64,000 bases of DNA from Algoriphagus sp. Its GTDB lineage: Bacteria > Bacteroidota > Bacteroidia > Cytophagales > Cyclobacteriaceae. Positions 9,241-26,255 of the stretch are shown one piece after another (the stretch's first letter is position 1; every line of letters starts with the position of its first letter). The stretch is taken from NCBI RefSeq assembly GCF_029254265.1, contig NZ_JAQWXX010000048.1, positions 27,256 through 91,255 of the forward strand, in the 5' to 3' direction. Both the position numbers and the translations under genes were made by a program. The notes below the pieces were generated by a model. The model did not search any database. It was not told where the DNA came from and saw only the letters and a program-made list of their open reading frames with translations.

Positions 9241-10044
9241 ATGAAAAAAATACTTTTACTCCTTTTAGCATCGGGTCTATTTTTTGAATCCTTTGCCCAA
9301 TCAGATTCTAAAATTTGGATCGGAATAGATGGCTCTTATTGGCAAAAATCAGTTAAATCTTCAGGTTTGGTAAGTTTAAAAAATGAGAATTTTGGAAGCT
9401 TACGCCCTATGGTCGGCTTGAGCCTCAATCAAAAATGGGACTTAGGAGTAATGGTAAGTTTCAATTCATACGTCGAAGAGATTTCACCATTGAGTTTGAC
9501 TACTTTTTCCTCCAATTTCAACGAGGATGGAATTTTGATTTCCCAAGATGCTCAGACTACCGTTTACCAGACTAGCATTGATAATCAGCTTTTTGGAGTT
9601 GGAATTTTCGCAAGAAGGCACTTCAGGTTGAATCAAAAATTTTCTTTTAATCTAAGCCCTTACATTTTAAGAGAATCTGGTGACTCCGGCACGATGGATT
9701 TTTATTTTCCTTATAACCTGACTTTCTATGACTATTGTTTAAACTGCCTTTCCATTTTTCCGGGACCGATTGAGGTCCCAATCAGTGAGGAAAATTGGAG
9801 ATTTGGTGTAGATGCAGCTTTTGCCTACCAAGCCTCTAATTGGCTGAAGCTAGAAATACGGGCAAATCTGCTCGAATTGAGAAAACAAACCCTAAGTGAT
9901 GAGCGAAATAACCTTACTAATGGATTGTCAGTTTTCGATCCTTTTCTTTCTGCCACACAAGGTTATTTTGGTAATTATTCAGACTTTGGCTCGGCAGTCA
10001 CTCGTGAAGGAATCCGCTTTGGGCTAGTCTTTACTCCCTTTTAA
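9241..10044 (+). CDS. Hypothetical outer-membrane beta-barrel protein
   Basis: Signal peptide, alternating amphipathic strands and C-terminal Phe. Confidence 0.55.
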   Translation: MKKILLLLLASGLFFESFAQSDSKIWIGIDGSYWQKSVKSSGLVSLKNENFGSLRPMVGLSLNQKWDLGVMVSFNSYVEEISPLSLTTFSSNFNEDGILISQDAQTTVYQTSIDNQLFGVGIFARRHFRLNQKFSFNLSPYILRESGDSGTMDFYFPYNLTFYDYCLNCLSIFPGPIEVPISEENWRFGVDAAFAYQASNWLKLEIRANLLELRKQTLSDERNNLTNGLSVFDPFLSATQGYFGNYSDFGSAVTREGIRFGLVFTPF

Positions 10045-10076
10045 ACTTTGCAATCGGTACACTCCGAAAGAAAAAC

Positions 10077-10084
10077 TACCTTTG
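10077..10084 (+). promoter_or_regulatory. Bacteroidota sigma-A -7 element TACCTTTG
   Basis: Matches TAnnTTTG 17 nt upstream of ATG 10102. Confidence 0.55.
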
Positions 10085-10101
10085 TGGAGAATTTTATTTC
10101 C

Positions 10102-11292
10102 ATGAAGCTACATAACAATACCATCCGCGGAGTTCATACCGCATTAAAAGCAATATTCGAAGAAGGACAATACGCTGACAAAGTCATCGAGCGTACCCTA
10201 AAATCCAACCCTAAATGGGGAGCGAGAGATCGTTCTTTCATCGCGGAGACGACTTACGAGATGGTGCGCTGGTGGAGATTGATCAATTACTTGAGTCCGT
10301 CAAAGGATTATTACGATCTATTTGGTACTTATTGGTTGATGCAGGGACATTCTCTTCCACCATGGGAGGAGTTTGCACGAATCAATCCCGACAAACTTCA
10401 AGACAAATACGAAAAGCTGGACGACCCAGCGAAACTGGAGTCTGTTCCAGATTGGCTTTTTGAAATGGGCAAAAAAGAATTGGGAGAAAAATGGGAGGCA
10501 GAAATCCATTCTTTGAATCAAGAAGCCCAGGTAGTTTTGAGAGTAAACACCTTAAAAACCACACGTGAGCGATTGAAAAATCGTTTGGCCGAGGATAATA
10601 TTTCAACTCACATCATCAAAGGCTATCCAGATGCATTGATCTTGGACGAGCGAGCGAATGTATTCCGTCATCCAACTTTCAAAGAAGGACTATTCGAAGT
10701 GCAAGATGCTTCTTCACAATTGGTAGCCGCAGCTTTGGCTGTAGAGCCAGGAATGCGTGTGATTGATGCCTGTGCTGGCGCCGGTGGAAAATCCCTTCAC
10801 ATTGCCGCTTTGATGCAGAATAAAGGGAAAGTCTTGTCCATGGATGTGGAAGAGTGGAAACTCCAGCAAACTAAGCTTCGCGCTAGAAGAGATGGTGTAT
10901 CCATCATCGAGCGGAAAGTAATAGAGGGTTCGAAAACAATCAAGCGATTAAAGGATACGGCAGACCGTTTATTGCTAGATGTACCTTGTTCAGGACTCGG
11001 AGTATTACGAAGAAACCCTGACACAAAATGGAAGCTTAGCGAAGAGTCCATCGAGAAAGTAAGGCAAACGCAGCAGGAAATTCTTCAATCCTATCCATCC
11101 ATGGTCAAGCCGGGTGGTCAAATGGTCTATGCGACCTGTAGCATTCTTCCTTCCGAAAATCAAGATCAGGTAGCTAAATTCTTGGCTTCAGAAGCAGGAA
11201 AAGATTTTGAATTAATTGAAGATCAAAAAGTACTGGCCCAAGAAAGTGGGTTTGACGGATTCTATATTGCTCGACTTCAAAAGAAAAAATAA
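10102..11292 (+). CDS. RsmB/NOP2-family RNA cytosine C5-methyltransferase
   Basis: NusB-like N-terminus; FEVQDASSQ, DACAGAGGKS, LDVPCSGLG and YATCS. Start moved from TTG 10048 to ATG 10102. Confidence 0.93.
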   Translation: MKLHNNTIRGVHTALKAIFEEGQYADKVIERTLKSNPKWGARDRSFIAETTYEMVRWWRLINYLSPSKDYYDLFGTYWLMQGHSLPPWEEFARINPDKLQDKYEKLDDPAKLESVPDWLFEMGKKELGEKWEAEIHSLNQEAQVVLRVNTLKTTRERLKNRLAEDNISTHIIKGYPDALILDERANVFRHPTFKEGLFEVQDASSQLVAAALAVEPGMRVIDACAGAGGKSLHIAALMQNKGKVLSMDVEEWKLQQTKLRARRDGVSIIERKVIEGSKTIKRLKDTADRLLLDVPCSGLGVLRRNPDTKWKLSEESIEKVRQTQQEILQSYPSMVKPGGQMVYATCSILPSENQDQVAKFLASEAGKDFELIEDQKVLAQESGFDGFYIARLQKKK

Positions 11293-15538: not shown

Positions 15539-16206
15539 TCCAAAACTTCACAGTTCAAGACCAGATTGGGATTAGGACAATTTTCAGAATAATAGTCTAA
15601 CTCCCGCTTGGCACAGACGCCTGGATAATCACCAAATTTCTCGCCCAATTCCCACATCAATTGAAAGTGTAAATGTGGTGGCCAATCTCCATTTTCTGGG
15701 AATGGACCGACATGGCAGAGAACTGTTCCTGCTTTGACTTCTTGGCCCTTTTCAAAAAGCTGCAAATCTGTTTTGGTCAAATGCCCATAAAGTGAATACA
15801 GTGTCTTACCATTCAGACTATGCTTCAAGATGATAGTTGGGCCATAATCACCAAAACCTTCATTATCCTGAATCGAAAAAATCTTCCCATCCAAAGGTGC
15901 ATAAACTGCTGCGCCAGCAGTCGTCCAAATATCCACTCCCAAATGAATATTACGAAAGTCAGCATCCGAAGTCTCAAATCGCTCACTTCTACGATAAATA
16001 GCCCGATGCTCGAGATAACCACCTACTCCGTAAGTCTTACTAGACCCTTTCAACTGGTCAAAAACAAACTCATTGAATACTGCAGTATTCCCCAAATCCA
16101 CATTTTCCAATTCCTTATTTGCAGGACTGAAATCCAGTTTCATCGTATTCTTGCTATTCAGCGACTCTCCCATGATCGGGTAAAAATCAATCTCATTCCA
16201 ATTCAT
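15535..16206 (-). CDS. M23-family metallopeptidase domain protein, no signal peptide
   Basis: IHLGVD (HxxxD), YSLYGHL and DWPPHLHFQ (HxH). Confidence 0.85.
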   Translation of the reverse strand: MNWNEIDFYPIMGESLNSKNTMKLDFSPANKELENVDLGNTAVFNEFVFDQLKGSSKTYGVGGYLEHRAIYRRSERFETSDADFRNIHLGVDIWTTAGAAVYAPLDGKIFSIQDNEGFGDYGPTIILKHSLNGKTLYSLYGHLTKTDLQLFEKGQEVKAGTVLCHVGPFPENGDWPPHLHFQLMWELGEKFGDYPGVCAKRELDYYSENCPNPNLVLNCEVLD

Positions 16207-16303
16207 GCCCGAAGATTTAAAAAATAATTGAAAGCCCTAAATCATCTGACGAGAATCTATCCCTTAACATTTCATAGGCAAAAAGAAATTCCTACTTTTC
16301 GAC

Positions 16304-17257
16304 ATGGAAAACACCCACTTCCCTTCACTGAACGACATTCGATTTGCCGCAGTTCGGATCAAATCATTTATTCATAAAACTCCAATCTTGACCAATTCCA
16401 CCATCAATGAGATGGCAGGTTGTGAGATTTATTTCAAATGTGAAAACTTCCAGAAGGTTGGAGCTTTCAAAGCTCGTGGCGCTGCAAACGCGGTCATGAA
16501 ACTAACTGATGAGCAAAAGAAAAAGGGTGTAGCCACGCATAGTAGCGGAAATCATGCTGCTGCACTTGCCCGTGCTGCAACTGTGGCTGGAATACCTTCT
16601 TACATCGTGATGCCTTCCAATGCACCGGAGATTAAGAAAAAAGCAGTGAAGGGCTATGGTGGAGAAATTATTGAGTGTGAACCTAATCTCAAAGCACGTG
16701 AGACTACGCTTGAAGCGGTCGTAAAACGTACCGGAGCGACATTTATTCCTCCTTATGATTTTATGGATGTGATCGAAGGGCAAGCAACTTGCGCATTGGA
16801 ATTTCATGAGGAACAGGATGACCTGGAAATTATCATGGCTCCTGTGGGCGGGGGTGGCCTTTTGGGTGGAACAGCCTTACTTACCCATCATTGGGATCCT
16901 GAAATAGAGGTGATCGGTGCGGAACCTGCAGGTGCAGATGATGCCTATCGCTCCTTCCATGCAGGTAAAATTATTCCACAAACAGGCCCAAACACCATTG
17001 CCGATGGATTACTCACTTCTCTTGGAGTTCTGAATTTTGAACTGATCCAGAAGTATGTGTCTGATATCCTTTTAGCGACAGATCCACAGATTATCGCCGC
17101 TATGCGCCTGATCTATGAACGAATGAAGATTATCATCGAACCTTCCTGCGCAGTACCGCTTGCTGCCTTGTTGGCAAATAAAGAGCGCTTCAAAGGAAAA
17201 AAAGTAGGAATTATCCTATCCGGTGGAAATGTGGATTTAGGGAAATTACCTTTTTGA
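16304..17257 (+). CDS. PLP-dependent serine/threonine dehydratase or serine racemase-like enzyme
   Basis: FKCENFQKVGAFKARG, SSGNH, PVGGGGL, EPSCA and ILSGGN. Confidence 0.9.
   Translation: MENTHFPSLNDIRFAAVRIKSFIHKTPILTNSTINEMAGCEIYFKCENFQKVGAFKARGAANAVMKLTDEQKKKGVATHSSGNHAAALARAATVAGIPSYIVMPSNAPEIKKKAVKGYGGEIIECEPNLKARETTLEAVVKRTGATFIPPYDFMDVIEGQATCALEFHEEQDDLEIIMAPVGGGGLLGGTALLTHHWDPEIEVIGAEPAGADDAYRSFHAGKIIPQTGPNTIADGLLTSLGVLNFELIQKYVSDILLATDPQIIAAMRLIYERMKIIIEPSCAVPLAALLANKERFKGKKVGIILSGGNVDLGKLPF
17208..17257 (+). repeat. Direct repeat A (3' 50 bp of the dehydratase; att-like)
   Basis: 46/50 identical to 22660-22709. Confidence 0.92.
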
Positions 17258-17284
17258 TAAAGACTAAAGAGCAATTTGACAAAA

Positions 17285-17533
17285 TCACTTTTTCACCTTC
17301 TTTTCCAAATAAGCCAATAAGGATTTGAGATTACTGGTTTTTCCATAGTCCTCTTCAGGGATATCTACATTCAGTTTCTCGCTAATTGACACGATAAACT
17401 GAAGAGCATCAAAAGAATCGATATTTAGTGCTTCTCGGATATTCTCTTCGGGCATCAGCTGCGAGGGGTCTGTCTCTGGGGCAATCCTTTGCAATAATTG
17501 AAAAACTGTTTTCTTGATTTCTTCCTCGGTCAT
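17285..17533 (-). CDS. Acyl carrier protein
   Basis: 82 aa, acidic; LNIDSFD phosphopantetheine Ser motif; ATGA overlap with the E2 stop. Confidence 0.88.
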   Translation of the reverse strand: MTEEEIKKTVFQLLQRIAPETDPSQLMPEENIREALNIDSFDALQFIVSISEKLNVDIPEEDYGKTSNLKSLLAYLEKKVKK

Positions 17534-18738
17534 AATTCTTCGGGATTTTGTAAGTGTCTATTGAGTGCTGCTAAAAACTTGCTTCCTATTAATCCATCCG
17601 TAGCACGATGATCTGCTGCCAAAGTCACGTCTACAACTGGCCGAATTCCCAACATGCCTTCGTCGGCAAATGGCTGCTCGCTGATTTCTCCAAAACCGAC
17701 AATCCCAACCTGTGGCGGATAAATCAGTCCAAAGACTTTATCCGCTCCTCCTTCTCCGATGCTAGTGATGGTAAATGTGGACTGACTGAGCTCTGAGCTT
17801 CTCAATTTGAAGGCTCGTGCTCTAGGGATAAGATCGTTGAGGTTTTCCATGATTTCGTCCACAGATTTCGAATCTGTCTGAAGGATAGCCGGAACGACAA
17901 TCCCACCAGATCTCAAGGAAACCACAAAACCTATATTGATTTCGTTTTTCCGCTGAAGCCCATTTTCCCATGTTGCATTGAGATCCGGAACTTCATCCAA
18001 TGCTTTTGCTACTGCTTTGATCAAAAGAGCAACAGGTAATAGACGCTTTTGAATCGGCAGCTCTTTGTTGGCTTCCTTCACCCAATCCATGGCTTTGGAC
18101 ATGTCCATCCTTTTTTCCAGATAGTAATGAGGAATCTCGCGGTTGGACTTACTCATGGCAGCAGCCACAGCCATCCGCACAGCATTGGCATTTGCCGTAA
18201 CAGGTTTTGCTGAAATTTCTTTTATTTCCTCTGTTTTCTTTTCAACTTCTTGAGTTGGCTTTTCCCCTTCGGAAATAGCCTCTTCAACGTCTTTTTTCAC
18301 AATCGACCCCTCGGGACCTGTTCCTTTCAACAAGGAAATATCAACCTGATTAGCCTCAGCAATTTTCCTTGCCAAAGGGGAAATCTTTATTCTCTCTCCT
18401 TCTTCAGTTTTCTCATGAGGTGTTTCTGTCTTTTCCTCAATAGGATGAATTTCCGGTTTTTGAGCTTCCTCAGCAGGAATAACAGATTCGGAAACTTCAG
18501 CTTTTCCGTCATTGATCAAAGCCAAAACGGTACCGACAGGAACCTTTTCTCCTTCTTTCACCAGAAGCTTTTCTAAGGTTCCTTCCTCAAAAACCTCTAT
18601 TTCTATCAAGCCTTTTTGCGTTTCCACATCAGCAATAATATCACCTCGATGGAGGACTTCGCCAGTTTGTTTTCTCCATTCAACCAACGTACCGGCTTCC
18701 ATATCTGCACCCAAATTGGGCATTTGAAACTTGATCAT
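17530..18738 (-). CDS. pdhC: 2-oxoacid dehydrogenase E2 (dihydrolipoamide acyltransferase)
   Basis: Lipoyl domain (VETQKG), subunit-binding domain ([14 protein letters not shown]) and DHRATDG catalytic motif. Confidence 0.9.
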
Positions 18739-19721
18739 GGCTTTAGCATTTTTTTAACCTTTTCTAAAATATCCGATACTTGAGGAACAGAAGCATCTTC
18801 CAAATGCTTGGGATACGGAATTGGCACCTCCACACCGCAGAGTCTTTCTACAGGCCCATCCAAATCAAAAAAGGCTTTTTCCATAATTCTGGAAATCACT
18901 TCAGATGAAATACTGACCGATTTCCATGCTTCTTCTACAACTAGCGCTCGATGTGTCTTTTTCACGGAATTCAGGAAAGTCTCCTCATCCATCGGCCTCA
19001 ACACTCTCAAATCAATCACTTCGGCATCAATTCCTTCTTCTCCCAGCGCTTCGGCCGCTTCCAAGCATTTGTAAACTCCCGCACCGTAGGTGATCAGCGA
19101 AATATCTTTTCCTTCGCGAAGGACCTTGGCTTTTTTGATCTCGACAGCTCCTGCATCTGCTGGGATTTCTTTCTCCAGATTCAGCATGAAGGTATATTCA
19201 AAAATGACTACCGGATCAGGACTTTGCATGGCAGAAAGCAACATCCCTCTTGCATCTTCATGGGTACCTACGGAAAGCACAATCAATCCCGGCACATGGG
19301 CAAAAAACGGTTCCCAACTATGGGAATGCTGCGCCGCCAACTGACGACCTATGCCACAACCCATTCGAATCACCACTGGAACATTCAACTGTCCGCCAGA
19401 CATATGGAGAAGAGTCGAAGCATTGTTGACTATTTGATCCATAGCGAGAAGACTGAAATTGACCGTCATCACTTCCACTATTGGCTTCATCCCGGCAAGG
19501 GCAGCCCCAATTCCCGCACCGGTAAATCCGGATTCTGACAGCGGCACATCCATAATCCGATCTGCTCCAAATTCCTTCAACAATCCTTTACTCACGGCGA
19601 ATGCTCCACCATAATTCCCCACATCCTCACCCATTAGGAAAACCCGTTCATCTTTTTGCATGACTTCTCGAATAGCTTGTTTGATAGCCTCTCGGTAAGT
19701 TATTTTGATCATGTCGCTCAT
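18735..19721 (-). CDS. pdhB: 2-oxoacid dehydrogenase E1 beta
   Basis: [22 protein letters not shown] and AQHSHS. Confidence 0.92.
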
Positions 19722-20704
19722 ATCGATTCTGTTTCAGAGTATACAAATCGCGTCAGGTTTTCAGTATCTTCCCAAGTTCCGTTTTCTGCAAACTCAATCG
19801 CTTCTTGAATCTGTGCATCCGCAGCTTTTTCGATTTCGGTTATTTTCTTAGCCGTAATGAGTTTTCCCTTCAGTAAAAATTCCTGAAACTTTGGAATCGG
19901 ATCTTTCTTTTTCCACTCCTCTACCTCCGATTTTTCCCGATATAATTCAGCATCAAACATGGAATGCGCTCGAAATCGATAGGTATTACAAACCAAAAAA
20001 TAGGGCTTCCCTTTTTCCTTGATCGTCTTCACCGCTTTTGCTGTGGCTTCCATCACTGCCAAAAGATCCATCCCGTCTACTGCTGCTGATTCAATGCCAT
20101 AAGCAGGACCCTTTTTCTCCAATTGCTGTACAGAATGGGTTAATTTGATTGCAGTACCCATCGCGTAAAGGTTATTTTCACAAACAAAAAGCACAGGAAC
20201 TTCCCATAATGCGGCTAAATTCATTGACTCATGAAACTCACCTTCTGCTGCAGCTCCCTCGCCAAAAAAGCAACAAGTCACATTATTTTTCTTTTGCTTT
20301 TTTGCTGCCAAAGCCATTCCCACCGCCAATGGCAAATGCCCGCAGACGATTGCATTTCCTCCAAAAAAATTCTTGGTCGCGTCAAAAAGATGCATGGATC
20401 CTCCACGGCCTTTGCTGCAACCTTCTTGCTTTCCATACATCTCCGCCATAATTGCATTAGGATCGACTCCTCTCGCTAGCGCATGTCCATGCTCCCGATA
20501 AGTACAAAGAAGATTATCCTCTTCAGTTAATGCTTGAATAACGCCAACAGCAACTGCCTCCTCACCCGTATAGAGATGCAAGAATCCCCGTATTTTGGAC
20601 TTGGTATATTCTTCAGCAGATTTCTCTTCAAACCTGCGAATGAGTATCATTTGCTGCAAAAGCCTTTGGCCTTCTTTAGCATCTAATTTTTGCTTCTTCT
20701 CCAT
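19718..20704 (-). CDS. pdhA: 2-oxoacid dehydrogenase E1 alpha
   Basis: [28 protein letters not shown]...ENN and YRFRAHS. Start moved to ATG 20704, 4 nt after the acsA stop. Confidence 0.92.
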
Positions 20705-20708
20705 GATT

Positions 20709-22424
20709 TTAGCCTTTTTCAAGTGTAGATAAATCTCCTTCCGGTAATCCCAATTCACGGGCTTTCAACAGCCTTCTCAAGATCTTTCCGCTTTTGGTTT
20801 TAGGAAGACTTTCGATAAAGGAAATTTCTTTGGGAGCTACCGCCGGACCCATCGTCTTTCGGGCGAAGCCAATCAATTCTTGGCTCATTTCGTCAGTAGG
20901 TTCAAAGCCTTCTTTCAGGACTACAAATGCCTTGACCAATTCTCCGATAGATGGTTCAGGTTTTCCGATTACTGCGGCTTCCACCACTGCCGGATGCTTC
21001 ATAAGTGTACTTTCCACTTCAAATGGACCAACCATATGGCCAGAAGTTTTGATGATGTCATCCGCCCTTCCAATAAACCAGAAGTAACCCTCCTTATCAA
21101 TTTTCGCCAGATCCCCAGAGATATACCAGTCTCCTTTAAAGCATTTTTGGTAGCGTTCTTCCTCATGGAGATAACCCCTGAAAAGAGAAGGAAACCCTTT
21201 TTTCAAAACCAAATGACCTTGATTATCCGGCTGATCATAGATCTTGATATCTTCACCTTCTATATCAGCAATCGCTGCGATTATTCCGGGAAGTGGCTTT
21301 CCCATGGAACCTGGTTTTACCTCCATCGAACGATAATTGGCAATCATTATCCCCCCAGTTTCTGTTTGCCACCAATTATCCAGCACGGGAACTCCAAAAG
21401 CTTTTTGTCCCCAGGTCACAGCTCCGGGGTGAAGTGGCTCGCCTACACTTAGTACCAATCTCAAATTAGAAAGGTCATATTTTTCTTTGGGCACCAGTTC
21501 CATTCGCATCAATCTTCGGATGGCCGTTGGCGCAGTATACCACACATTGACTTTCTGCTTTTCCAAAATGGAATACCAGCGCAAGGCATCAAATTCCTCT
21601 TCATCTATGATGCTGGTTACGCCGTTGACCAGAGGAGCCATGATCCCATAAGAAGTGCCGGTCACCCAACCTGGATCTGCAGTACACCAAAAAACATCCC
21701 CCTCATGAAAATCCAATACGTATTTCCCGGTGGTATAATGCGTAAGTACGGCCTGGTGAACGTGTAAAGCACCTTTCGGCATTCCTGTGGTTCCGCTTGT
21801 AAAATGCAACAAAGCCGGGTCTTCCGAATCGGTGGGAGGAATAGTGAATTCTTCAGAAGCTTCCCCCATGAGTTTGGTCAATGAAAGAGCTTTCTTATCC
21901 ACATGCTCATCTGAGTCCGTCAGTAAGATGACTTCTAAGGAAGGAAGCCGATCGAGAAGTCCCTTTATCTTTTTCTCGTAAAAGCTTGTATTGGTGACCA
22001 ACACTTTTGCATCACCCTTACTCAATCGTTGAAAAATGGGTTCTGGTCCAAAAACCGAGAACAAGGGACAAAAAACAGCTTTGAATTTCAGCGTCCCTAA
22101 AGCCGCGATATACAAGTCCGGTACTCGACCCAATAATGAAAAAACCCGTTCTCCTTTTTTCAATCGTAATCCAGCCAGTACATTGGCAAACTTGGAAGTT
22201 TGGGTTTTTAAATCTCCATAAGAGTAATCATTAGTCTTTTCCTCCTTTCCGATAAAGCGAAGCGCAACCGTATTTTTCAAGTGGCCAGAAGCATGCCTAT
22301 CCACCGCTTCATGTGCGATATTCAGTCCTTTTCCGTCGGGTAATCCTGATAATTGATTTCGCTCCTTTTGCCAGTCAAAATCTTGATAAAGCTTGGCATA
22401 ATCGGTTAAATTTGGCTTTTTCAT
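20709..22424 (-). CDS. acsA: Acetate/short acyl-CoA ligase (AMP-forming)
   Basis: [30 protein letters not shown] and TKSGKILRR. Confidence 0.92.
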
Positions 22425-22580
22425 ACGCAGATCTTTTATTCCAAAAATTTTTTGAAAGCCTGTTTTTTTAACAGAATTCCAACTTCTAATCCCTCAAAAA
22501 CCAGATGAGGTATTGATCCTTTCCTAATTTACCATTTTATAAAAATGAAATTAAATTTTTGGACAATCATTTAGCCCTTA

Positions 22581-22594
22581 ATGACTTAAATCAT
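22581..22594. promoter_or_regulatory. Candidate Crp/Fnr-type operator ATGAC-N4-ATCAT
   Basis: Near-palindrome about 157 bp upstream of the acsA start; same geometry as TTGAT-N4-ATCAA. Confidence 0.35.
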
Positions 22595-22659
22595 ATTCTT
22601 CGGCATTGAAATGAGATGTTTTAAAGACTAAAGGAACAGATAACTCCTAAAAAATGACA

Positions 22660-22709
22660 GAATCATCCTCTCCGGCGGAAATGTGGATTTAGGGAAATTG
22701 CCTTTTTGA
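22660..22709 (+). repeat. Direct repeat B (orphan copy of the dehydratase 3' end, encodes IILSGGNVDLGKLPF*)
   Basis: Four differences from copy A, all at synonymous third positions. Confidence 0.92.
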
Positions 22710-22871
22710 GTTCGTCACCAAGTCAACAAAGGCTATTGCCAAGTACCCAAAGGGTTTTAACCACATAGGAGTAAAGCATAGTCAAAAATCGTTAAAGAAT
22801 GAAAGCAATCTATTTTCCATAAGATTGGTCAATTAATATAACCAGAGAATCAAGTTGCCTTTTTGATTAAG

Positions 22872-22906
22872 AAAACAGCCCAAATCTTTCGACTTGGGCT
22901 GTTTTT
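22872..22906. terminator. Terminator hairpin, copy 1
   Basis: AAAACAGCCCAA-loop-TTGGGCTGTTTT; its 26-bp core is 25/26 identical to 24488-24513. Confidence 0.85.
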
Positions 22907-23072
22907 GTATTTTTAAGATCGCATCGCACACTATCTTCGGCAGGTAAATCTAATTTATTGTCATAATTGTTCTTTTTGTAGTAGAAACAAGTACCTAAAT
23001 TTCTTCTTTACACTCATTTTAATTTCCACAAAATCTACCATCTCATCTTTGTTGTTGAATAATTGATCCTTT

Positions 23073-23684
23073 TCAATCGAGAAACAGCAAGTCTTTCCTA
23101 GATACTTCTATCCATTCATTATTTTCCCATAGAAACATAAATGCCGTTAAGGGAGTAAGTTCACTATGATTACTATTTGATTTTATAATTAGAAATCCGA
23201 TAGTTCTGGCTTTAGTATTGATTATTAAAGGACTAGAAATCTTTAGACTCCAATATTTATTGGATTTTTTTGGCCATTGTTTGATTGACTTTAAATTACA
23301 CTCATCACTTATTGTCGTTTCGTAAGATGAATCAATTAATGTATCTAAAATATTCATATCAATTTTTTCACCAATAAGCGTAGATAAACTATCAGAAATT
23401 AATTGTCCACCTTTGATTAAAGGAAAGAAGACTGATTCAAGTTCTGAACCATTCCCTATTTCTTCAGAAAAGGCAAAGGTCTTATTCAAAATTTTATATT
23501 TCCCTTCGCCTTTCTCTAATAATACACAGACTTTATTCATTAGTTTTTCACTTTTTGTTTGTGCAGATAAGTAAATAGAGTTAGTCAAGACTATTAGTAC
23601 AGCTAGAATAAGAGCACTTTTGGCCTTTTGCATTAGGGTCACCGAGAGTTTCATGTGTTTGTTATTCATTTTTAGCGGACACAT
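23073..23684 (-). CDS. Hypothetical, probably secreted, AT-rich protein
   Basis: 203-aa ORF with a hydrophobic N-terminal segment; true start uncertain. Confidence 0.55.
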   Translation of the reverse strand: MCPLKMNNKHMKLSVTLMQKAKSALILAVLIVLTNSIYLSAQTKSEKLMNKVCVLLEKGEGKYKILNKTFAFSEEIGNGSELESVFFPLIKGGQLISDSLSTLIGEKIDMNILDTLIDSSYETTISDECNLKSIKQWPKKSNKYWSLKISSPLIINTKARTIGFLIIKSNSNHSELTPLTAFMFLWENNEWIEVSRKDLLFLD

Positions 23685-23728
23685 ATACTCTTGAAGGGTT
23701 GAAAAAAAGAATTACACATCCCAAACTA

Positions 23729-24409
23729 TTATTCAATCTCTGACAATATTTTGCTCAATCCACCCATTCCATGGTCAATCACAAAATGAAGCGTTTTATT
23801 GTCTGGCGCATCAACCATCTCCAGAATATCTAAGAAGTATCCTTTTGCATCCTCGCCTGAACCCATAGTACCTATTTCTTTTTCATAGTATTTGGTGATC
23901 AACACATAACCATCAATAGGAGAAATCACAAAATAAGGGCGCTCTTTGGAGCCGTCGCCGGTAGACAAAATAGATTCCGCGATTAACTTAAATCTTGCTT
24001 CATACTTCTTCGTTTCCTGTTCATTTATAATCTTGGAATTTGCCTTCCAGAGGCCATAGTTAACCGACAAATCAACAGGGTTCATTTCGTAAACTAACTT
24101 CCCGTATTTCAAAAGTGTATCCGGTGAAACCTGATCTGTAGCTAAAAAAGATCTTTCCAAACCAACCATTCCATAGGCATTGTAGCTTTCTTGGGCAGTT
24201 TGTCCGATCAACAATCGAATTACTTCTTTCTTCGTGAAATTCTCTCCCTCTTCATTAAACCTGGATCTAAGACTTTCATAAAAATTGGGGTCGTCTTGAA
24301 TTTTAGATAGTTTGTAATATTTAGGGTAGTCCTCTGAGTAAGTGAAGTTTTGAGAAAATACTCCAAAACTAATGACACTTAGCAGGAAGGTTGCAATCAG
24401 ATTTTTCAT
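23729..24409 (-). CDS. DUF4919-like secreted protein
   Basis: Signal peptide; ILSTGDG..ERPYFVI segment recalled as typical of this family. Confidence 0.7.
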   Translation of the reverse strand: MKNLIATFLLSVISFGVFSQNFTYSEDYPKYYKLSKIQDDPNFYESLRSRFNEEGENFTKKEVIRLLIGQTAQESYNAYGMVGLERSFLATDQVSPDTLLKYGKLVYEMNPVDLSVNYGLWKANSKIINEQETKKYEARFKLIAESILSTGDGSKERPYFVISPIDGYVLITKYYEKEIGTMGSGEDAKGYFLDILEMVDAPDNKTLHFVIDHGMGGLSKILSEIE

Positions 24410-24483
24410 GCTTTTTTTTGAAAGATAAACTATCTTTTAATTAATCAAAACGATTTTCTTTTTCCTTGATGATCTTAGAAATA

Positions 24484-24518
24484 AAAAAGCCCAAATCTTT
24501 CGATTTGGGCTGTATTTT
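24484..24518. terminator. Terminator hairpin, copy 2
   Basis: AGCCCAAATC-TTTC-GATTTGGGCT with flanking A/T runs, downstream of the GMC gene. Confidence 0.85.
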
Positions 24519-24545: not shown

Positions 24546-26255
24546 TTACTTTTTGCTTTCTGCAACCGCATGATGCGCTGCTCTCGCCGCAAAAGCCATA
24601 TAGGTCAAGGATGGATTCTGAGTAGACGTTGAAGTCATAGAAGCCCCATCTGTCACATAAACATTCGGAACAGCATGAAGCTGATGGTTAGCATTAAGCA
24701 GAGAAGTCTTCGGATCTCTACCCATTCGTATACCACCCATCTCATGGATATCTAATCCCGGTGCTTGCTTGCTGTCACTGGATTGAATATTCGTAAAACC
24801 AGCCTTTTCAAACATCTCGGTCATCTGCTCGATGTAATCCTTCGTCATCTTCTCATCATTGTCATCATAGTCAATGTTGATCTTCAACTGAGGCATTCCG
24901 TATGGATCTTTTAGATTTTCGTCCAAAGCCACATAATTAGTTTCTTTTGGGATAGTTTCTCCCATCATATGAGAACCTACACGCCAAGGCCCATATTGAT
25001 CTGGATTGAGCAAGCTTTCTTTCAGCTCCATACCTATTCCACTATTATCCGATCTCACACCTCTTCCTCCAGAGAAGCCTGCAGCGTATCCACGAAGAAA
25101 ATCTGTCTCCTGCTTATAGACATTTCGGAATCTTGGGAAATAGCCACTCGTTGGTCTTCCGCCGGAAGTGGCATATTCAGAAAGCCCCTCGTATTCTCCC
25201 GAAACACGTGCTCGGTAATTATGGAAAGCCACATATTTACCCATTAACCCATTGTCATTTCCAAGGCCATTCGGGAAGCGATTGGAAGTGGAATTCAATA
25301 AAATCAAATTGGTATTCAAGGCGGCTGCATTGATGAAAAGTACCGGAGCATAAAACTCCTCCATTTCTTTGGTATGCGCATCGATGATCCGTACACCTGT
25401 GGCTTTACCTAATTCCTCATCGTAGATCACCGAATGCACAATAGCGTCCGGTCTCAAGGTGAGATTTCCAGTTTTCAAAGCCCAAGGAATGGTCGATGAG
25501 TTGGAAGAAAAATAGCCTCCAAAAGGACATCCTCGCTGACAAAGGTTTCTATTTTGGCACATTGCCCGCCCTTGCTGGGCATAATAATCTGCATTTCCGT
25601 GAATATGCGCACAGCGTGAGGATATCATGTGACGGTCATTGCCGTAGTGTTTTTTGAGTTGCTCCGCAAAATATTTCTCCACCACATTCAACTCATAACC
25701 CGGCAAAAACTCCCCATCCGGTAAATTAGGTAACCCATCTTTGTTCCCAGATACCCCGGCAAACTTCTCCACATGGCTGTACCAGGAAGCAATATCCTTG
25801 TATCGAATCGGCCAATCCACCGCAAAACCATCCCGAGCAGGGCCTTCAAAATCAAATTCCGACCAGCGCTGTACTTGTCTTGCCCATAGCAAAGATTTAC
25901 CTCCTACTTGATAGCCCCGGATCCAATCAAAAGGCTTTTCTTGTACATAAGGATGCTCTGCATCTTTTACGAAAAAATGAGCGGCGTCTTCATTGAAAGC
26001 ATAGCACTTACTTACCACCGGATTGGCATCTTTCACTTCCTGAGGCATTTGTCCGCGATGCGGAAATTCGTAAGGAAGTAGGTTGGTGGTGGGATAATCT
26101 TTGATGTGTTCCACATTGCGACCACGCTCGATCATCAGGGTTTTCACGCCCAAGTCACAGAGTTCTTTTGCAGCCCAGCTTCCACTGATTCCCGAACCGA
26201 CCACAATCGCTTCATAAGTTCGTTCTTGTTTACTTCTAATATTCAGATTAGCCAT
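24546..26255 (-). CDS. GMC-family flavoprotein oxidoreductase (glycoside/sugar 3-dehydrogenase-like)
   Basis: VGSGISG, GGKSLLWAR, CxxxxxCxxxC (CQNRNLCQRGC), HEMGG and STQNPSLTYMA. Confidence 0.9.
   Translation of the reverse strand: MANLNIRSKQERTYEAIVVGSGISGSWAAKELCDLGVKTLMIERGRNVEHIKDYPTTNLLPYEFPHRGQMPQEVKDANPVVSKCYAFNEDAAHFFVKDAEHPYVQEKPFDWIRGYQVGGKSLLWARQVQRWSEFDFEGPARDGFAVDWPIRYKDIASWYSHVEKFAGVSGNKDGLPNLPDGEFLPGYELNVVEKYFAEQLKKHYGNDRHMISSRCAHIHGNADYYAQQGRAMCQNRNLCQRGCPFGGYFSSNSSTIPWALKTGNLTLRPDAIVHSVIYDEELGKATGVRIIDAHTKEMEEFYAPVLFINAAALNTNLILLNSTSNRFPNGLGNDNGLMGKYVAFHNYRARVSGEYEGLSEYATSGGRPTSGYFPRFRNVYKQETDFLRGYAAGFSGGRGVRSDNSGIGMELKESLLNPDQYGPWRVGSHMMGETIPKETNYVALDENLKDPYGMPQLKINIDYDDNDEKMTKDYIEQMTEMFEKAGFTNIQSSDSKQAPGLDIHEMGGIRMGRDPKTSLLNANHQLHAVPNVYVTDGASMTSTSTQNPSLTYMAFAARAAHHAVAESKK

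Follow-up and report, generated by a model that had tools for sequence, protein, structure and literature searches.

The 64,000-nucleotide (nt) stretch of DNA considered here (the window, in whose positions all coordinates are given) belongs to a 4.75-Mb genome of Algoriphagus (Cyclobacteriaceae; G000 in the comparisons), whose nearest named relative is A. marinus am2, with 87-89% nucleotide identity in the region. Downstream of the gene for a pyridoxal phosphate (PLP)-dependent dehydratase the window carries a 5.4-kb cassette with a five-gene metabolic operon, which stands between the functional 3' end of the dehydratase gene and a second, orphan copy of that end. The cassette was probably gained, without an integrase and not through an att site, by ‘insertion with long target duplication’ (3'-end displacement), and ordinary homologous recombination acted on it later. 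The locus looks like a well-documented example of a known integrase-free insertion scar and not like a new mobile element. The features at the two ends of the block are as follows.

16304..17257, plus strand: PLP-dependent serine/threonine (beta-hydroxyaspartate-type) dehydratase, a core gene of the genus (Pfam PALP, E 5e-79)
17197..17257, plus strand: functional dehydratase 3' end, repeat copy 1 (repeat search, translation)
17258..17269, plus strand: 12-mer TAAAGACTAAAG, left copy (one of two genome copies)
22622..22633, plus strand: 12-mer TAAAGACTAAAG, right copy (genome search)
22634..22659, unstranded: spacer, then the degenerate 5' margin of the old orphan; homologous among the three cassette bearers compared (alignment)
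22660..22709, plus strand: orphan dehydratase 3' end, repeat copy 2 (collinear with the functional gene end of G061)
22710..22851, unstranded: 142 nt that are the native DNA 3' of the dehydratase stop codon in G061, G050 and partly A. pacificus (comparison)
22852..22866, plus strand: older 15-nt orphan of the gene end, AAGTTGCCTTTTTGA (unique to the locus in the genome; G061 has it too)
22869..22906, unstranded: palindromic terminator hairpin, copy 1, directly after the 15-nt orphan (repeat families D8/I1; core present three times in the genome)

The direct repeat spans 61 nt with 87% identity (17197-17257 and 22649-22709, spacing 5452). It was returned by the repeat search as a single pair, and a search of the whole 4.75-Mb genome finds the 61-mer at exactly these two places. 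There are four mismatches in the final 48 nt (17210-17257 against 22662-22709), at 17212, 17218, 17224 and 17248, all of which are third codon positions. Both repeat tails translate to IILSGGNVDLGKLPF*, and all four differences are synonymous. Among the single substitutions possible in these 15 codons, 34 of 135 (25%) are synonymous, and four out of four would arise by chance with P ~0.004. The preliminary description of this DNA had reported such a tail repeat with four all-synonymous differences, and the repeat search and the translation of both copies confirm it. An assembly artefact is ruled out by an independent Logan assembly (L043) of a public sequencing run, which matches this DNA at 100% identity for 20,954 bp, both repeats included. 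Nine Logan contigs have the gene with its neighbours unchanged.

The 5.4-kb block is an insertion, because L049 and G043/L127 have the flanking genes of both sides with an empty site between them. The alignment of relatives gave further empty sites in L046 and many other genomes, in agreement with the insertion that had been proposed beforehand. In these genomes the dehydratase gene has a single tail. The dehydratase is followed directly by the GMC-family oxidoreductase gene in G012, G006, G003, G007, G071 and G070, and likewise in L046, L054, L056, L058 and L059. The gap between these two convergent core genes is an integration hotspot, in which at least eight different cargos are found across species. 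For example, A. pacificus carries two unknown genes in the gap, A. sediminis a protease, an adenylate cyclase and two more genes, and both G005 and G023 an AAA_14/DUF4143 gene; other gene sets occupy it in G011, G014, G018 and G019. Two further states of the gap were observed. The metagenome genome L046, with an empty site, has the last 14 nt around the stop codon (GCCTTTTTAGAATC) tandemly duplicated (1073-1110). G050 (L126, reverse complement 7684-10301) has only the acetate-CoA ligase gene and ~50 nt of E1-alpha in the gap; this remnant has the dehydratase on one side and a piece of the oxidoreductase end on the other, and the remaining cassette is missing.

The absence of an integrase or transposase between the repeats, stated in the preliminary description, is upheld by Pfam and NCBIfam scans, which found no recombinase domain in the five cassette genes and their neighbours. 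Tyrosine recombinases (PF00589) have 11 matches in the genome, none of which is on this contig, and the region contains no tRNA gene and no Rfam family. Similarly, no integrase was found in the cargos examined among ~50 Algoriphagus loci, for which the Pfam scan was limited to selected inserted genes. A transposon or insertion sequence, with terminal inverted repeats and a short fixed target duplication, was considered and rejected: the repeat search found no inverted repeats at the cassette ends, and the 12-mer does not lie at the repeat boundaries. The terminator that is duplicated is a long palindrome, and the inverted repeats within its copies are the outer arms of this palindrome.

The age of the insertion can be read from the relatives that share it. 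In am2 and SE2 an orphan follows the cassette at the orthologous place after the same spacer, and it is decayed with non-synonymous and stop changes (GGATTATTCGCTCGGGGGGAAATATAGATTTGGGGAGGCTGGTTATTT in am2, GGATTATCCTTTTCAGTAGAAATTTGAACTTAGGAAAGCTACCTATAAAA in SE2). The orphans of am2 and SE2 diverge by ~35%, equal to the neutral (4-fold) divergence of the cassette, and hence the original insertion is older than these species. The pristine tail had been taken to date the arrival of the cassette, which is contradicted by the shared cassette and decayed orphan of am2 and SE2; what is young in G000 is the orphan and, on its right, the AT-rich DNA. Immediately past the orphan, each of the three genomes has entirely different DNA. 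In am2 it is a AGCCCAAATC-type terminator and then the oxidoreductase, in SE2 it is a AAAAACCCTCCC-type terminator, and in G000 it is 1.76 kb missing from both am2 and SE2. With a homologous spacer before it and differing DNA after it, the orphan is the joining point of lineages.

The source of the young piece is indicated by G061, the dehydratase of which is 98% identical in protein and which has no cassette at the site. The DNA 3' of its intact gene is collinear with 22660-22906 (82% identity over 261 nt), with the tail, 142 nt past the stop codon, the 15-nt copy of the gene end and the terminator in the same order; the same post-stop sequence is found in G050 and partly in A. pacificus. The 15-nt orphan also aligns with the end of the am2 orphan and the am2 terminator. 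To the left of ~22660, G000 has the cassette spacer and the CAG(A/G) state at the 5' edge of the orphan as in am2 and SE2, a state which is common to cassette bearers and missing from functional genes. Hence the orphan from ~22660 onwards and its 3' flank of ~200 nt once were the working end of a gene and the DNA native to its downstream side. The joining of this retired gene end to the cassette by a crossover within the tail accounts for the all-synonymous differences without selection on the orphan. The earlier suggestion that both copies had been under coding selection in different lineages is thereby supported, through the intact gene end of G061 and its downstream collinearity. With both outer flanks equally am2-like and the patch AT-rich, the simplest reading would be that a cassette-bearing, am2-like chromosome took up the patch, for which the old orphan and the terminator/oxidoreductase end provided the homology, although the opposite direction is conceivable.

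The cassette adjoins the dehydratase in am2, SE2 (G055), Ww129 (G001), G069, G022 and G076, and the operon lies tail to tail with the dehydratase wherever it is present. In comparison with SE2, the five cassette genes have 87-88.6% identity and a 4-fold-site divergence of 0.33-0.43, whereas the genes flanking on both sides have 69-79% identity and a divergence of 0.58-0.73. The identity switches at the dehydratase stop/ACP end on the left (ACP, acyl carrier protein) and in the intergenic region upstream of the ligase on the right. In comparison with Ww129 there are three levels of identity: ~65-70% in the flanks, 80-92% in the dehydratase and its promoter, and 88-90% in the cassette. Therefore, the left crossover of that transfer lay upstream of the dehydratase. 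The end points differ between SE2 and Ww129, which argues for homologous recombination and not for a site-specific enzyme. As judged from these identity profiles, the cassette has demonstrably been transferred between Algoriphagus species.

Orphan ends of this gene are not restricted to the cassette, and their lengths vary: 15 nt (G000, G061), ~51-60 nt (G005), 61 nt (the cassette) and 282 nt (G061). Such a range leaves no fixed core. The G005 orphan stands beside the AAA_14/DUF4143 gene, and the DNA beyond it is what G014 has after its intact gene; this DNA is 92.5% identical to that of G014, and the gene itself 85%. The junctions of the cassette and of G005 both lie at an A-run, GGNAAAAAAGT, which may be a favoured microhomology. 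The 282-nt orphan of G061 is in frame and fused to a fragment of the oxidoreductase 3' end, and it differs from the gene of its own genome by 43 synonymous and 4 non-synonymous changes. The orphan oxidoreductase 3' fragments of G061 indicate that this process reaches into the gap from either side. In this genome (L124, reverse complement 6215-9118) the scars are stacked, including two oxidoreductase 3'-end fragments of ~38-80 nt, and surround two genes related to the A. pacificus inserts. A local alignment search for further orphans in 40 related loci scored only G000, G005, am2 and SE2; in G022, which has the cassette, the orphan is unrecognisable. A longer decayed pseudogene 5' of the orphan was also considered and rejected, as local alignments were no better than shuffles.

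A comparison of the genome with itself revealed five more genes whose 3' end recurs 0.6-4 kb downstream as a non-coding copy beside inserted genes. The contig positions, repeat lengths and differences are as follows.

rimO-like gene, C125:147564-149286: repeat of 169 nt, 19 synonymous and 2 non-synonymous differences
cation antiporter gene, C51:9938-12319: repeat of 141 nt, 24 synonymous and 4 non-synonymous
gene of a 410-amino-acid protein, C2:7949-8686: repeat of 101 nt, 2 synonymous and 0 non-synonymous
peptidase gene, C20:41580-45777: repeat of 136 nt, 9 synonymous and 5 non-synonymous
SMC gene, C87:22507-25853: repeat of 122 nt, 8 synonymous and 7 non-synonymous

The differences are almost all synonymous in three of these five loci. 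Orphans of the rimO-like gene with other lengths are also present in am2 and G071. The genes inserted at the five loci are ordinary and none is integrase-like. The insert on C87 includes a homologue of IS200-like Y1 transposases.

The following course of events would produce the locus. The gap would be a hotspot that gains foreign or allelic DNA without a dedicated recombinase. In an ancestor, a segment with the 3' part of the dehydratase and the five-gene operon would have recombined into the chromosome. Its left side would have been joined by homology in or near the dehydratase, and its right end illegitimately, ~50-61 nt 5' of the resident stop codon, beside the A-run GGA AAA AAA GTA. Alternatively, a circularised fragment may have integrated by a single crossover (Campbell-type) with the same product, and the two routes are not distinguishable by sequence. 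The gene would have remained intact in either case, with its resident last 50-61 nt displaced downstream as an orphan. We infer that the first event was illegitimate or of Campbell type and that it depended on RecA; the A-run shared by the junctions is the sole visible sign of microhomology. Later, the block spread between Algoriphagus species by homologous recombination with variable end points, as the transfers to or from SE2 and Ww129 demonstrate. In G000 the old, decaying orphan then recombined with the intact end of a G061-like gene by a crossover near 22660, a step that the collinearity with G061 establishes except for its direction. The product is the present order of a recently retired gene end, 142 nt, the 15-nt orphan, the terminator and an AT-rich patch of two genes.

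Four points weigh against this account. The 12-mer is present at the two inner ends only and is left unaccounted for by the model. The orphans of G005 and of the cassette, which are independent, start at most ~10 nt apart, as a site-specific mechanism would likewise predict. Donor and recipient in the last event are not provable, the outer flanks on both sides being equally am2-like. Finally, a 203-amino-acid protein gene of the patch beside an intact dehydratase, as in the donor, was not found among 121 species representatives.

The first two points would favour an integrative element with a lost or trans-acting integrase, for which the dehydratase 3' end would be attB and the repeats attL and attR. 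Integrative and conjugative or mobilizable elements (ICEs, IMEs) and the cis-mobilizable elements (CIMEs) related to them occupy the 3' ends of protein genes, for example the fda locus of Streptococcus thermophilus, and CIMEs keep an att core that is recognised by an integrase. The architecture fits, with the intact gene end on the left and the displaced end on the right of an integrase-less block bounded by gene-3'-end direct repeats. The block occupies the same site in several strains, of at least five species, the two independent cargos (the cassette and the AAA_14/DUF4143 gene of G005) have their orphan starts close together, the 12-mer is unique to the two inner ends in the genome, and 11 tyrosine recombinases are encoded elsewhere. 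Yet an integrative element of this kind, which the preliminary description had put forward, is unlikely. The orphan boundaries lie at -15, ~-51 to -61 and -282 nt from the stop codon, the transferred tracts end at other points in SE2 than in Ww129, and the site has at least eight cargos, in none of which, among those examined, was an integrase or its remnant found. The same pattern recurs with repeats of 101-169 nt at five unrelated genes. Unlike CIMEs, the locus thus has variable repeat lengths and junctions, and no cognate integrase was seen.

The 12-mer itself does not strengthen the case for such an element. It was rightly described beforehand as present at both inner ends, and the genome has exactly two copies, one right after the stop codon and one at 22622-22633. 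In am2 the left counterpart is TAAAGACAAAAG. The right copy is not conserved, am2 having GGAGACCAAGG and SE2 also differing. Between the 12-mers of the two ends only 8 of 12 positions match in am2, and in SE2 the left-hand copy is unrecognisable. A role as an arm-type binding site is unsupported, given the lack of conservation on the right side in both relatives. Speculatively, the 12-mer may be the mark of an older step which placed the cassette 12 nt past the stop codon.

A second alternative is that an ancient orphan was refreshed by intrachromosomal gene conversion from the functional tail 5.4 kb away. The CTA and TTA of copy 1 are readable as later synonymous changes (am2 has CTC and TTG), after which few orphan changes remain to be explained. 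However, the fresh tract runs 200 nt past the stop codon, where it has no counterpart near copy 1 and is collinear with G061, and the orphans of am2 and SE2 have not been homogenised, so that gene conversion is very improbable. The perfectly kept reading frame in G000 could instead point to selection on the orphan itself, for example within a small open reading frame or a regulatory RNA, or as a signal in the transcription of the genes next to it. This is slightly harder still to accept, as the orphan has no usable start codon (an internal GTG only) and is preceded by an in-frame TAA at 22647-22649, its orthologous copies in am2 and SE2 are decayed, and there is no Rfam match. The least credible proposal is that the orphan is the last trace of a paralogous dehydratase or tandem duplication, mostly deleted: the 282-nt orphan of G061 shows that larger pieces can persist, but the 100 nt 5' of the orphan are no more gene-like than shuffled controls in G000, am2 and SE2, and decay after duplication predicts ~40% synonymous differences, against 4/4, 43/47, 19/21 and 24/28 seen.

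The integrase-free insertion preferred here has counterparts in the literature. Insertion with long target duplication produces direct repeats of more than 30 bp and of variable length, often over a gene 3' end, and involves no mobility genes (PMC2853133). The present locus shares the insert without transposase or integrase, the repeats of more than 30 bp (61 nt), the single copy in empty-site genomes and the variation of repeat length between events (15, ~51-61 and 282 nt; 101-169 nt elsewhere). Nobusato et al. 2000 is reportedly a further source on this type of insertion. In the published cases the cargo is restriction-modification genes, the events lie within species and the repeats are almost identical (Furuta, Abe and Kobayashi 2010, PMC2853133). 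The Algoriphagus locus is different from them in that its cargo is a metabolic operon, its repeats are diverged alleles of different lineages and species, and its orphan was reused as a crossover point.

The displacement of C-terminal ends at rearrangement hotspot (Rhs) and type VI secretion system (T6SS) effector loci has been put down to homology-facilitated illegitimate recombination, with homologous recombination responsible for the later spread (Kirchberger et al. 2017, PMC5361080). At these loci, as at those of contact-dependent inhibition (CDI) and in the present case, the incoming segment brings a gene end and the resident end is pushed downstream; orphans can stack. The present orphan descends from a once-functional resident allele and retains the downstream DNA native to that allele, as the collinearity with G061 shows. 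Jackson et al. 2009 is said to deal likewise with C-terminal displacement and orphan arrays at Rhs, CDI and T6SS effector-immunity loci. In the Rhs, CDI and T6SS systems, diversifying selection acts on the displaced ends, which are variable toxin tips accompanied by immunity genes, whereas the end displaced here belongs to a metabolic enzyme, is a conserved tail of 16 codons and has no toxin logic. Homology-facilitated illegitimate recombination in transformable bacteria was reportedly described by de Vries and Wackernagel 2002 and by Prudhomme et al. 2002. Here as there, foreign DNA would be added through a single homologous anchor and a single illegitimate joint at a microhomology. The experimental events usually delete recipient DNA, whereas here the joint would fall inside a region that the donor carries as well, which leads to a duplication. 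Algoriphagus is not known to be naturally competent.

The remaining features of the cassette and of the gap, up to its right bound, are the following.

17285..17533, minus strand: ACP, last cassette gene (PF00550; NCBIfam ACP models)
17530..18738, minus strand: E2 dihydrolipoamide acyltransferase (Biotin_lipoyl, E3_binding and 2-oxoacid_dh)
18735..19721, minus strand: E1 beta subunit (Transket_pyr and Transketolase_C; NF006667 over cut-off)
19718..20758, minus strand: E1 alpha subunit (E1_dh; TIGR03182 over cut-off)
20709..22424, minus strand: acetate-CoA ligase-type AMP-forming enzyme, first cassette gene (AMP-binding domains; NF003313, 880 bits against a cut-off of 729)
22425..22621, unstranded: region upstream of the cassette operon, which moves with the cassette and is in one block conserved among three species (alignment of G000, am2 and SE2; identity profile)
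23073..23684, minus strand: 203-amino-acid protein, in the AT-rich patch specific to this genome (no Pfam or NCBIfam match)
23729..24409, minus strand: DUF4919 protein (PF16266; adjoins the oxidoreductase in G014, G018 and G009 too)
24480..24517, unstranded: palindromic bidirectional terminator, copy 2 (repeat search)
24546..26255, minus strand: GMC-family oxidoreductase, convergent core gene and right bound of the hotspot (GMC_oxred_N/C)

Besides an ACP and an acetate-CoA-type ligase, the operon encodes the E1 and E2 components of a 2-oxoacid dehydrogenase but lacks E3; its E1 alpha and beta are those of a pyruvate-dehydrogenase-type complex. The G+C content of the cassette is 43-45%, as in the flanks, and that of the AT-rich stretch at 22400-24000 is 32-34%. 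The terminator pair, 1.6 kb apart, brackets the AT-rich genes of the 203-amino-acid and DUF4919 proteins, and a third exact copy of the 24-nt hairpin core is present on contig C66 (23475-23498). Homologues of the 203-amino-acid protein occur in 3 of 121 genus genomes with 38-44% identity.

The dehydratase was found in 40 of 41 relatives; its best NCBIfam matches are BhcB and threo-3-hydroxy-L-aspartate ammonia-lyase, both under cut-off. Its promoter region (16163-16364) has 83-100% identity among G000, am2 and Ww129 and is unalignable (20-50%) against SE2 and G022. On this sequence comparison, the region upstream of the dehydratase appears in two distinct alleles in the genus. The gene order 5' of the dehydratase likewise varies within the genus between two forms, coaX-M23 and c4-c1. 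The arrangement in L037 (G013) suggests an inversion with one end just 5' of the dehydratase; L030 (G023) was noted alongside.

The locus shows that a whole metabolic operon can be gained and exchanged without mobile-element machinery. The comparators are unusually complete: some relatives have an empty site, some a decayed orphan, one still has the counterpart of the orphan in use as its gene end, and older orphans are found stacked. Where an orphan gene end differs mainly at synonymous sites, it provides a simple signature by which recombination events can be found and roughly dated genome-wide. This genome alone has at least six such signatures, which are not to be taken for the att sites of integrative elements. 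Both tails flank the operon and match the most conserved stretch of a core gene, and for this reason it is conceivable, albeit doubtful, that the intact and orphan tails serve as portable homology arms, by which RecA alone could insert the block into any Algoriphagus chromosome, with no matter what DNA downstream of its dehydratase, each transfer renewing the orphan. If this is true, and if it is valid at the other orphan loci, Algoriphagus would have in 3'-end displacement a general way of gaining genes at convergent core genes, and one that can be dated.

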